Source: Microcystaceae cyanobacterium
GTDB taxonomy: Bacteria > Cyanobacteriota > Cyanobacteriia > Cyanobacteriales > Microcystaceae
Assembly (NCBI GenBank): GCA_041746575.1
Contig: JBGTGT010000055.1
Coordinates: 9,550-73,549 of the forward strand
Reading direction: 5' to 3'
DNA: 64,000 bases
In this document: positions 6,826 to 10,839 of the stretch, piece by piece
Position numbering within the stretch: the stretch's first letter is position 1
Layout: every line of letters begins with the position of its first letter
The notes under the pieces: model-generated
Databases searched by the model: none
What the model was told of the DNA's origin: nothing
What the model saw: the letters and a program-made list of their open reading frames with translations, nothing else
Program-made: the position numbers and the translations under genes

Positions 6826-7924
6826 TTGAGTTGATGAGGAATATTATTTTTACGCTTCGCGAATAATGGGTAAATCTAGCCAATCACTCAGTTCACCCAC
6901 TAGCCAATCTAATTCAATTTCAGATAGTAAACCTTCTCCACCAATTGTAAACTTTTTCGTTCCTGCCCAAATATTAATTTGTGGCTTAACTTCTGTCTTG
7001 CTACCTTCAGAGCTACTTTTGTATGATATCTTAGTCCGTTCTAACTTAATGATATTATGGCGTGATGCTGGACGAGGACGTTGATAATTTAAACCAAAAA
7101 GTCGGTACTTCAAAGTGATTTTTTCTGAATTAATTTGTAACCAAACTTGTCCAAAAAGGGCGAACAAAATCCGCAAGGTGAACCAAATACCGACTCCGAC
7201 ATGCACTAGAGGGAAAAAAACAGCAAACCACTCTATTGTATTCATCGAATTCCCTGAACGGAGTGCCATTAGATACCAGTTTACCAAAAATCCATTCCAA
7301 ACAGCTGCAAATCCAATGGTAGGCAATAACTCAAGGGTAAATCCTCGAGGCGGAATATAAATTTCCAGAAAATTATGCCTTTTATTAAGAATTACTTGAG
7401 AATCCGCGGGTTTTGTAGAAACTAAAAAAGCTTTTTTTCTGGTTTCTTCCTTTTCCAAAGCTTGTAATGCTTGATTAGCCGATTTCAATCGATGGTCAAG
7501 AGCAGGTTCAGTCATCCATTGTAACCAATCAATAAAAATAGATGAAAAGCTCACATGATTTTCAAAACAAATTTTAAGATTTCTTTGCGGCAAATCTGCC
7601 GGATGTTGTCCAGATGCTAGATAAATCAGTGTGCCCCTAAAGCGTACAGATCAGAAGCAGGTACGGCTCGTTCTCCAAATTGTTCGGGAGGCATATAGCC
7701 GTAAGTTCCCACAACGGTTCGACGAGTTCCCTTTTCGCTAGCCGCCGCTTGCACAGAGCCAAAATCAACCAGATAGATTTGACCGACGCTATTCCCTGAA
7801 CGATGGCCAGTAAAATGTTATTTGGCTTAATATCACGATGGATAATAGGAGGATATCGACTATGAAGATAAGTCAGAACTTGTGAACTGTCCCGACGCTG
7901 ACGCAAACGTACAGCGCGGGCTTC

Positions 7925-9199
7925 TTACCCAGAGACAAGCGCAGTAGTAGATTTCTTTCGTCCTCTATTACTACGACTTACAGTCTGGCGATAAGCTTCT
8001 TGATGAAGTTGTTCATGGGGGAGACCCCCAAGACCACACTTCATCGCTTTATCCCGCGTCCCACAGGTCAAAATTCGTAGTCCCTCATCTCTGAGATTAA
8101 TTGCGGCGTTAACATCTCTGTCGTGTTTTGTCTGGCAGTTTTCACAAGTCCAATGTCTGATATCAAGCGGCAAACTACCCACCTGATTTAAGCAAACATG
8201 ACAAGTTTTTGATGAAGGGAAAAACCTATCAACTTCTTGATAAATCTTACCCTCATTTTCTGCTTTGTATTTAAGCAGGGTCATGAACATTCCCCATCCA
8301 ACTTGTGCGATTGCTTTAGCTAGACAGTGGTTTTTCATCATGCCTTTTACATTAAGATTCTCTGTCACAATGACTTGGTTTTCGTCTACTATCCTACGAG
8401 ATAGCTTATGTAGATAATCTTCACGGCAGTTCGTTATTTTACGATGTACTCTAGCAACTTTTCTTCTAGACTTATTACGGTTGCTAGACCCTTCTTGGTG
8501 CAGTTGTTCATGGGGGAAACCCCCAAGACCACACTGCACCGCTTTTTGTTTTCTAGATAGTTGCTGCTGTTTTAGCTTTAAATTCTTTTCATGTTTGGCT
8601 AGGAATCTTGGATTGTCAAATTTAGAGCCATCGCTAGTAATAGCAAAATGGGTTAAACCTACATCAACACCTATCGCTTTTCCTTCTGTGGATGATTCTG
8701 GTTGTTCTTGATCATCTTTAAATAATATAGAAGCAAAGTATTGGTTACAGCAATTTTTAGATACAGTAACCGTTTTGATTGTACCCTCTATAGGTCTATG
8801 GATAATCGCTTTTATTTCTCCAATCTTTGGAAGGTTCAAGCTTTTTTCTAGAACTTTGACATTTTGAGGATACTGAATAGACTGTTTACCCTGTTTTGAC
8901 TTAAACTTAGGATACCTTGCCCTACGTTCAAAAAAGTTATTAAAGGCAACTCCAAGATTTAAACAGGCTTGCTGTAAACACTGGGAATAAGTCAGTTTTA
9001 ACCATTCATGCTCTTTTTTAAGAGCAGGTATTAGTTTCTTAACTTCATATCCAGACAAACCCTTCCCTGTCTCTTTATAGGTCTGATTCATCAAGTTTAG
9101 GCAATAATTCCACAGCCAACGAACATTGCCAAAACTTTGTTCTAGCGACTGTTGTTGTTCTGTATTTGGATATAGCCTTACTTTGACAATCTTTAACAT
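7925..9199 (-). CDS. tnpB: RNA-guided endonuclease TnpB
   Basis: HTH (VRLYPNTEQ), RuvC GVDVG / TENLNV / DRDVNAA, Zn ribbon CHVC-CENC; two 17-aa insertions. Confidence 0.95.
   Translation of the reverse strand: MLKIVKVRLYPNTEQQQSLEQSFGNVRWLWNYCLNLMNQTYKETGKGLSGYEVKKLIPALKKEHEWLKLTYSQCLQQACLNLGVAFNNFFERRARYPKFKSKQGKQSIQYPQNVKVLEKSLNLPKIGEIKAIIHRPIEGTIKTVTVSKNCCNQYFASILFKDDQEQPESSTEGKAIGVDVGLTHFAITSDGSKFDNPRFLAKHEKNLKLKQQQLSRKQKAVQCGLGGFPHEQLHQEGSSNRNKSRRKVARVHRKITNCREDYLHKLSRRIVDENQVIVTENLNVKGMMKNHCLAKAIAQVGWGMFMTLLKYKAENEGKIYQEVDRFFPSSKTCHVCLNQVGSLPLDIRHWTCENCQTKHDRDVNAAINLRDEGLRILTCGTRDKAMKCGLGGLPHEQLHQEAYRQTVSRSNRGRKKSTTALVSG
7997..8047 (-). repeat. 51-bp hairpin mini-element, copy 1 (in frame in tnpB)
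   Basis: GCGATGAAGTGTGGTCTTGGGGGTCTCCCCCATGAACAACTTCATCAAGAA. Confidence 0.9.
8492..8542 (-). repeat. 51-bp hairpin mini-element, copy 2 (in frame in tnpB)
   Basis: GCGGTGCAGTGTGGTCTTGGGGGTTTCCCCCATGAACAACTGCACCAAGAA; 46/51 identical to copy 1. Confidence 0.9.
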
Positions 9200-9936
9200 A
9201 CTTAGAGTGAATTGAATATCTTATAAAATATCTTAGCACAAGATTTTGATTGTGTGGCAAAAGTTTATTGGTCAATTTTCGGGGCATTGAACCCCTCAAT
9301 TGACGAAGTCAGAGGAAGCCTCGGCTTTCCAAGCCGGAGTACCGATGACCCGCCTTTCATCCCGACGCTGACCCTATCGGGTACAGCGCGGGGCTTCTCT
9401 GCGGTGAGCTAATAGGGCTTTGGCAATTTGCTTTAACTCAGTTTCACTGAAGGTTCGTCCTGATTGAACCTGTTGTTCTAGGGAAGGCGCATCATATAGC
9501 TTTGTACCAGCGCAAAACCTCTATTCGAAAGACTTTCAGTCTCAAAGTAGTCAATATAGCGAGGAATGGCAGGATGCTCAAGCTCTTTTAAGGTCTGAGC
9601 TTCACGTTCAAACAGTTTAACCGTTTCCCATGTTAGTCCACTATTAAAAATCAATCGTTTAACCACCACTAAATTTTGAGTTTGTCTGTCAAAAGCGAGT
9701 AGCGTCTGCTGACCCAATCCAAATCCTAGCTCTCGTCGAATTTCATAACGCCCTTGTAATACCTGCTCATTCATTAAAGCCACCTTAGAAATCTAGTAAC
9801 TTTTGCTAATTTCTTTTGTTCTTATACGCAACAATTAGGCTACAAGGTTCATCTCAATTTTTACTAAAAAGCGTAATAAGTCTTAACCATTGGAACATCC
9901 AACTTAACGAGAATTTTTTAAGTACCTATTTGAAGT

Positions 9937-10839
9937 CTATGCTTCCCCTGCATGATAGGAACTTCTGACCAACGGCGCAGAACGAACCTGAGAAAACCCC
10001 ATTGAACGGGCAATTTCGCCTAATTCTTCAAATTCTTCAGGTGTCCAGTATCTTTGGACGGGTAAATGCTCCAAAGATGGACGCATATATTGACCTAGAG
10101 TGAGGCGATCGCAATCAATTTGGCGTAAATTCTGTAATGTTTCGATAATTTCCCTTTTTGTTTCCCCGTGGCCTAGCATTATGCCTGATTTCGTGGCAAT
10201 CGTTGGCTCAAATTCCTTAACCCACCTTAGCACATTGAGCGATCGCTCATATTTTGCGCCCCGTCGTACTTTATCCTGTAAGCGATATACCGTTTCGAGA
10301 TTATGATTATAACAAGCGGGTTTTGCCTGAACAACGGTTTTAACTCTGTTTTTCTGACTACTTTCTTTGTCTTTGCCCCCAAAGAAATCGGGGGTTAGCA
10401 CCTCTATCTGCGTTTGCGGATTTAACTGGCGAATCGCCGTCATCGTTTGCACAAACCAACCTGCGCCACCGTCTGTCAAATCGTCCCTTGCTACGGAAGT
10501 TAAAACGACATAACGTAAGCCCAATAATTTGACTGATTCTGCGATTTTTTGGGGTTCTTCTGGGTCTAAAGCCATCGGAGCATGACCTTTATCCACTTGA
10601 CAAAAAGCACAACTGCGGGTGCAAGTCGGCCCCATTAATAAAAAAGTAGCCGTTTGACGAGCGTAACATTCCCCCCGATTAGGACATCTTCCCTCTTCAC
10701 AAATGGTATGGATTTGACGCTGTTTAATAATGCGTTGGACGGTGGACAATTCGCTGGCTCTACCGATAGAACGTTTTAGCCAAGGTGGCAGACTGGTGAT
10801 TTCATCCCGCCATTGCTGATGAGGAGGAGTTTGGGTCAT
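9937..10839 (-). CDS. lipA: Lipoyl synthase
   Basis: [12 protein letters not shown], radical [19 protein letters not shown]. Confidence 0.95.

Follow-up and report, generated by a model that had tools for sequence, protein, structure and literature searches.

The DNA considered here is a 64,000-nt stretch of contig JBGTGT010000055.1 from a Microcystaceae cyanobacterium (assembly GCA_041746575.1, positions 9,550 to 73,549), referred to below as the window, and within it a tnpB gene of an IS200/IS605-type insertion sequence (IS) that is interrupted in frame by two copies of a 51-nt hairpin mini-element. We denote these copies A and B and the places they occupy sites A and B:

7997..8047, plus strand: hairpin mini-element copy A (site A), 51 nt, approximately residues 385–401 of the C-terminal tail of TnpB
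8492..8542, plus strand: hairpin mini-element copy B (site B), 51 nt, residues 220–236, between ...LSRKQK and GSSNR...
7925..9199, minus strand: tnpB open reading frame (ORF), 424 aa, intact despite both insertions
7882..9412, minus strand: tnpB-only IS200/IS605-type element, 1531 bp, with 100% identical ends on contigs C88/C89 and C90/C91
7881..8090, minus strand: 3' end of tnpB and right end of the IS, forming a conserved RNA-like structure with covariation that holds copy A

Pfam recognizes in the 424-aa ORF the families HTH_OrfB_IS605 (PF12323), OrfB_IS605 (PF01385) and the Cas12f1-like TNB (PF07282) with 58.6, 85.5 and 79.4 bits, all above the cut-offs, so that it reads as a complete TnpB; a profile of the protein matches the ISDra2 TnpB structures in the PDB (8bf8/8exa/8h1j, E 1.3e-85). 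To this protein each copy adds a peptide of 17 residues: AMKCGLGGLPHEQLHQE by copy A (~385–401) and AVQCGLGGFPHEQLHQE by copy B (220–236). The sense form of the element, CATGGGGG, stands on the plus strand in copy A, which means that tnpB reads the copy antisense, and copy B has the same orientation. The last 25 bases of contigs C88 and C89 stop exactly at the centre of copy A (...CATGGGGG): here the hairpin coincides with assembly breaks.

The two copies are identical at 46 of 51 positions, the mismatches lying at plus-strand positions 7, 10, 27, 45 and 48 of the 51-mer. Four of them form two compensatory pairs of the outer stem, 7:48 (A–T to G–C) and 10:45 (A–T to C–G), and the fifth, position 27, falls within the GGGGG-NNN-CCCCC loop; in a simulation, two compensatory double changes arise among five random substitutions with P = 2.7e-4. 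Folded as single-stranded DNA, each strand of each copy reaches −13.3 to −17.9 kcal/mol (z −4.2 to −6.6), and none of 200 shuffles folds as well. The 32-nt core has two matches in the window against 0.00 expected. A first-pass annotation of this DNA had described two in-frame 51-bp hairpins of 17 codons each within one tnpB, nested in an IS, differing at five positions of which four were compensatory and one lay in the loop, and without another copy in the window. Sequence, ORF and folding bear this description out: both copies lie inside the IS at 7882..9412, and the core matches are the two copies only.

Filled and empty sites and the wider repeat family

Both 51-mers are insertions and belong to a dispersed hairpin family. 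The evidence for insertion comes from a DNA alignment of the IS with the nine tnpB loci closest to it (tnpB loci from 65 of 89 genomes of the window's family), in which site B is empty in all nine loci and site A in eight, the gap being exactly 51 nt. At each of the two sites, a 1627-nt metagenome contig of run X10 with ~92% identity jumps over exactly 51 nt (7994 to 8046, junction ambiguity 4 nt, and 8490 to 8542, junction ambiguity 3 nt), and a contig of run X7 likewise does without copy B (skip from 8490 to 8542, 51 nt). The empty-site alleles that the first-pass annotation had proposed looking for thus exist. The sole filled relative, L020, is occupied at precisely the same place in site A by a diverged copy, which differs from copy A at ten positions, eight of them making up four compensatory pairs. 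In the tree of coding DNA the window groups with the empty loci L010 and L011 (support 0.998), and L020 is joined to the empty L012 (0.825), both falling within a clade that includes the empty loci L019 and L014 (0.995). Because L020 and the window stand in separate clades that both have empty members, site A was either hit twice or vacated by several precise losses.

The family to which the 51-mers belong was traced with a 22-nt core pattern, CATGGGGGNNNCCCCCAAGACC, allowing up to one mismatch and using the reversed pattern as a control. Among 401 genomes of the order, 83 contain the core, and they represent 42 of 142 genera; the control gave zero in every genome; within one genus, individual genomes hold 93, 171, 199, 208, 234 and 367 copies. 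The 32-nt core is present in 4 of the 89 genomes of the window's own family. A scan of named genomes returned at least 122 loci, from Nostoc, Rivularia, Calothrix, Moorena, Okeania, Xenococcus, Pleurocapsa, Lyngbya, Dapis, Brasilonema, Scytonema, Fischerella and others, and a megablast search of PLSDB with a consensus-type copy found five plasmids (from Nostoc flagelliforme, Nostoc sp. C057, Halotia and Brasilonema), none of them from N. punctiforme. A match in a metagenome-assembled genome of Gemmataceae (L118) was rejected as a chance match inside other sequence, having no flanking stem; it was retained in alignment A1, described below. In the runs X1–X3, contigs corresponding to window positions 8501–8547 carry the core in a shell of the CTTACGAA... 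type at depths of 8–18, from which it follows that co-resident organisms or other loci carry the family as well.

The subfamily form represented in the window can be written xT-CTTGATGCAG-T-CGC-TCA-TGGGGG-AAA-CCCCCA-AGACC-GCG-CTGCATC-GC and comprises three helices: the outer one varies, the middle one is CGC/GCG, TGC/GCA or TGT/ACA (TGT/ACA in the window), and the inner one is fixed by the search pattern. Covariation was assessed on alignment A1, which holds 126 distinct 51-mers, against 500 shuffles; the six inner pairs carry no information here, since the search pattern itself makes them invariant. Paired cells amount to 87.0% against 78.3±0.4 in the shuffles, cells changed on both sides number 203 against 70.1±6.5, and the covariation score is 0.256 against 0.094, none of the 500 shuffles reaching the observed value in any of the three measures; no slid control exceeds 0.068. 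The bulged T and the internal loop in which TCA stands opposite AGACC are 90–100% conserved in the 126 copies. A dispersed hairpin family with strong stem covariation, anticipated from the two copies, is thereby confirmed.

Build of the element and its places of residence

The family has a modular build. The shell CTTGATGC-N20-44-GCATCGC has 253, 144 and 187 matches in three high-copy genomes and 4 and 0 in two others (control 0), and the matches listed combine several left and right inner halves around GGGGGAAACCCCC. Exactly at site B, the related locus L029 carries a different 48-nt hairpin with similar termini and another inner part. Copies also nest: in L057, L095, L103, L134, L144, L145, L148 and L187, a copy with CCACGGCAG...CTGCCTCC ends sits in the GGGGG-AAA-CCCCC loop of another copy. 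Within the window's own genome, only the IS contains the GGGGG-core form. A shell-type search of the same genome gave six pattern matches against one in the control; one of them is copy B, another, on C40, looks unrelated, and the remaining four are shell-type relatives, TCTTGRTGCGCGTTCCCTTG...GGGGTCGCACYGC (loci L221–L223), all in or beside ORFs of DDE_5 transposases:

C22:7737-7785: shell-type relative
C22:8140-8190: shell-type relative
C42 ~9140-9210: shell-type relative
C75:5896-5992: shell-type relative

The copies on C75 and C42 contain further nested inserts.

The ends of the element are conserved. Among 37 copies with these termini the base preceding CTTG is invariably T, this T being itself preceded by G in 21 copies, by T in 11 and by C in 5, and in 34 of the 37 a T follows ...CGC. 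From CTTG to CGC, 30 copies measure 49 nt, five measure 47 nt and two measure 50 nt, to which 1–3 end bases are added. In three insertions into heptamer arrays (L054, L157 and L178), the 51-nt insert splits one heptamer as CC/T... and no base is duplicated beyond a 1-nt ambiguity. The window's own junctions show a repeat of 4 nt at site A (AAGC) and of 3 nt at site B (AAG); elsewhere it measures 1, 3 and 4 nt. Since the heptamer arrays contain no duplication, AAG(C) probably arises as a by-product where the element's own end meets a Y^T-type target, rather than as a target duplication. Of the earlier reading of both junctions as an AAG duplication, the description is thus nearly right, and the duplication itself is unsupported. 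Equally, preservation of the reading frame, once proposed as a property of the element, does not hold for the family: the units vary between 47 and 51 nt, and only 22 of 144 copies have any of the six frames open across ±140 nt. It follows that most copies are intergenic and that the in-frame copies are survivors.

Some copies lie in mobile elements. Among 30 one-per-genome loci, four are in tnpB: L043, in which the copy occupies the N-terminal part of the gene and a Y1 tnpA adjoins, and L051, L063 and L064, in which it occupies the C-terminal tail. Two more (L041 and L042) are in what is probably the guide RNA of an IscB element, HEARO (RF02033): at 1350-1626 of each locus the model is matched end to end with a 46–48-nt insertion in one apical loop, and an RRXRR+HNH ORF follows downstream. 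With 72.2 and 74.7 bits (E 5e-13 and 1.3e-13) the matches stay under the gathering score of 83, the insertion of this hairpin element in the apical loop being the cause. All six tnpB- or IscB-resident loci come from genomes with 1–7 copies; six other loci stem from genomes with at least 93 copies, and not one of them lies in such an element. In the short-flank sample of named genomes, L130 and L095 have their copy just after the zinc-finger part of TnpB. Six of the copies in tnpB run antisense to the gene and three in its sense.

Why the two sites of the window should have been occupied is suggested by the protein and by its RNA. Site B, between LSRKQK and GSSNR, aligns to LSRRKK/GS of ISDra2 TnpB, with predicted helices on either side (197–222 and 240–269). 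Site A lies about nine residues beyond the last aligned chain residue (374 of 408) of the ISDra2 TnpB match. At the RNA level, a consensus fold of the last 160–230 nt of nine loci has 44 pairs, 12 with compensatory changes, and comprises a small hairpin as well as a long stem in which four compensatory pairs follow one another; the linker between the two holds copy A, and the unrelated inserts of L014 and L019 lie just 5' of the small hairpin. We predict that this 3' structure is the scaffold of the guide (omega) RNA; Rfam gave no match in window positions 7000..10000 at E up to 1. Other, unrelated small in-frame hairpin inserts of 12–72 nt occur in relatives of this tnpB at the same few places, namely at site B in L029, about eight codons upstream of site A in L014, L019 and L020, and near 8690 in L011 and L029. 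Both sites look tolerant for the protein as well as for the presumed guide RNA, and such tolerance would explain recurrent retention.

The IS itself is present in about three copies, all with both inserts: in the metagenome runs X1–X4, which contain this genome, its unitigs (7882–8535 and 8506–9412) span both inserts at ~3x the depth of the flanks (88 vs 28, 37 vs 14, 101 vs 33 and 9 vs 4). This tnpB-only IS stands at ~3x with identical ends, yet the genome (134 contigs) has no Y1_Tnp match. By ORF translations inspected by eye, the IS splits a kinase-like gene into two fragments:

7637..7906, minus strand: C-terminal fragment of a Ser/Thr-kinase-like gene (HRDIKPNN motif)
9478..9783, minus strand: N-terminal, ATP-binding-like fragment of the kinase-like gene

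Mode of movement, competing explanations and significance

We consider it likely that the two 51-mers are small non-autonomous hairpin repeats of a cyanobacteria-wide family, moved as single strands, inserted in tnpB and carried as passengers of the IS. The moving form would have been a single-stranded DNA hairpin, which an enzyme encoded at another place, predicted to be HUH/Y1-like, excised and reinserted without duplicating the target. The copies would have entered this genome as passengers of the IS, a step that we hold to be rather likely when taken by itself, and the second copy may derive from the first or from the same source. In favour of passenger status are the confinement of the GGGGG-core form to the IS in this genome, the ~3x depth of an IS that spans both inserts, the six tnpB or IscB loci of low-copy genomes, and the position of the four shell-type relatives in or beside DDE_5 transposase ORFs. 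Their persistence would reflect the predicted loop between two helices at site B and, at site A, the tail beyond the alignment with the solved TnpB together with the linker between RNA stems. The assignment to single-strand chemistry of the HUH type is a tentative one, for which we see somewhat less than an even chance.

Several observations weigh against this reading. The fill of L020 at the same position in another tnpB clade could reflect a real target preference rather than tolerance. The AlphaFold2 model of TnpB, built from 24 sequences, has a mean pLDDT (predicted local distance difference test) of 53 and is too poor for a fold search, so the placement of site B in a surface loop rests on alignment and secondary structure. 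The contigs of X1–X4 contain no joint that removes either insert, although contigs drop rare variants. The search for a mobiliser produced no candidate among the Y1 genes of the window's genome and of five high-copy genomes: none of six candidates in the window's genome matches Y1_Tnp (PF01797), in an assembly of 99.78% completeness in 134 contigs from which repeats may be missing. The five high-copy genomes have 14–46 Y1 matches each; around 30 of these loci, 97,566 nt hold five core matches, no clear excess, and none of the 30 genes is flanked on both sides by copies. In the first 3 Mb of G279, three of ten Y1 matches have a copy within 500 nt, all three degenerate, which we read as co-location in IS-rich DNA and not as a dedicated pair.

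The passenger reading has to be weighed against a genuine preference of the element for IS200/IS605-superfamily elements (tnpB, iscB), whose Y1 transposases or single-stranded intermediates might mobilise or attract it. Six of the 30 one-per-genome loci do lie in tnpB or IscB elements, six tnpB lineages besides that of the window (L020, L051, L063, L064, L130 and L095) hold the element directly behind the RuvC-III/zinc-finger part, two separate clades have site A filled, and L043 has its adjoining Y1 tnpA. Yet all six tnpB/IscB loci derive from low-copy genomes, with none among the six sampled loci of genomes with at least 93 copies; there is no clear enrichment near Y1 genes and no Y1 match in the window's genome; and the related shell elements of this genome reside in DDE-type IS instead of IS200/IS605. 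We therefore regard targeting as unlikely, and the IS targeting at which the first-pass annotation had hinted gives way to hitch-hiking with retention, which fits the distribution at least as well. The compensatory pairs, for their part, might stem from quasi-palindrome correction of DNA by template switching or intrastrand repair, a process that exists in bacteria, instead of selection on the folded molecule. The share of paired double changes, four of five between copies A and B and eight of ten between copy A and L020, is very high for slow compensatory evolution (P 2.7e-4 under random substitution), and we grant this explanation a modest chance; copying from arm to arm should, however, erase the non-palindromic bulged T and the TCA/AGACC loop, both of which are 90–100% conserved in 126 copies.

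Two further explanations concern the IS. The hairpins might serve it, for instance as a guide-RNA stem or as extra loops of TnpB, since the approximately three IS copies all keep both inserts with the ORF intact, copy A lies inside a conserved 3' RNA-like structure, and in L041 and L042 the same element occupies an apical loop of the probable IscB guide RNA. Such exaptation appears improbable to us, given that the closest relatives (87% and 85% DNA identity, and the ~92% identical X10 contig) do without both inserts, that the orientation to tnpB varies (six antisense, three sense) and that most family copies are intergenic. Less probable still is an ancestral presence of the 51-mers in this tnpB lineage followed by deletion in the relatives: short direct repeats of 4 and 3 nt flanking a hairpin would favour precise deletion, and site A is shared with L020, but the tree would require many independent precise losses, and the 51-mer belongs to a family dispersed over hundreds of unrelated sites.

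Among known systems, the closest in kind are the small dispersed repeats (SDRs) of Nostoc punctiforme and relatives, SDR1–8 of 21–27 nt, which Elhai et al. reportedly described in 2008 in Genome Res 18:1484. Both are very small, hairpin-forming dispersed repeats of cyanobacteria with insertion evidence, mutual nesting and high copy number in Nostoc-like genomes, and the present copies lie at many unrelated sites of Nostoc-type genomes and are inserted and nested in other repeats. The likeness to Nostoc SDRs drawn earlier thus stands for dispersal, insertion and nesting; by description, the family matches the SDRs in kind. It differs in that its unit measures 47–51 nt with defined termini and occurs also in Moorena, Okeania, Xenococcus, Pleurocapsa and Dapis. 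According to one later paper, no SDR was found outside Nostocaceae (PMC5861425), and another gives SDR5 as 21 nt long and associated with HIP1 (PMC13756078).

REP/REPIN elements are mobilised by RAYT (Y1/HUH) transposases; Bertels and Rainey (2011, PMC3116915) name SDRs as candidates for the same logic, and their supplements give the position, but no sequence, of the Nostoc punctiforme RAYT repeat. The present elements resemble these in being short, palindromic and non-autonomous, with the hairpin as likely substrate and no target duplication; they differ as single hairpins that also occur inside genes and whose doubles are nested or tandem, not inverted pairs. Among the 30 Y1 loci of five high-copy genomes, the five core matches were single ones, and no Y1 gene flanked on both sides by copies was found. 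In-frame palindromic repeats in coding genes, adding a peptide at tolerated places, are known as Rickettsia palindromic elements (~100–150 nt), which are not known outside Rickettsia. The copies inside tnpB behave alike in adding in-frame peptide segments at tolerated places, but there is no sequence relation and most present copies are intergenic. Cyanobacterial miniature inverted-repeat transposable elements (MITEs) such as Nezha are non-autonomous and multi-copy with terminal complementarity, usually exceed 100 nt and have target duplications set by the parent transposase. In contrast, the present unit is ~50 nt long, has no parent IS with the same ends and yields no fixed-length duplication (none in the heptamer arrays L054, L157 and L178; junction repeats of 1, 3 and 4 nt).

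A full-text literature search for the core and shell strings returned no relevant paper. Possibly new are the spread beyond Nostocaceae, the modular shell and the residence in tnpB/IscB elements at guide-RNA-tolerant sites; if the family (CAGTCGCTCATGGGGGAAACCCCCAAGACCGCGCTG) is a published SDR, the window is an ordinary new instance and its value lies in these details. The insertions also reveal naturally insertion-tolerant positions in TnpB, namely its C-terminal tail and the loop that follows ...SRKQK, and in guide-RNA scaffolds (the linker in the tnpB 3' structure and the HEARO apical loop), which are of use for nuclease engineering. More generally, the family bears on the question, dating from the cyanobacterial SDRs, of how the smallest bacterial mobile DNAs move, to which it adds filled/empty pairs at single-base resolution, defined termini, a build of shell and inner hairpin, and strong stem covariation. 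Its residence in tnpB and IscB elements of low-copy genomes makes vehicle-borne spread and a Y1-type mobiliser testable. A bolder and, in our estimation, rather unlikely extension would be that single-strand hairpin transposons of ~50 nt, with fixed termini and swappable inner hairpins, use IS200/IS605-superfamily elements (tnpB, iscB) and other IS as vehicles between cyanobacteria, settle where nuclease and guide RNA tolerate them, and are mobilised by the Y1/HUH transposases of those very elements. If true, the hairpin would parasitise a parasite and remodel guide RNAs as well.

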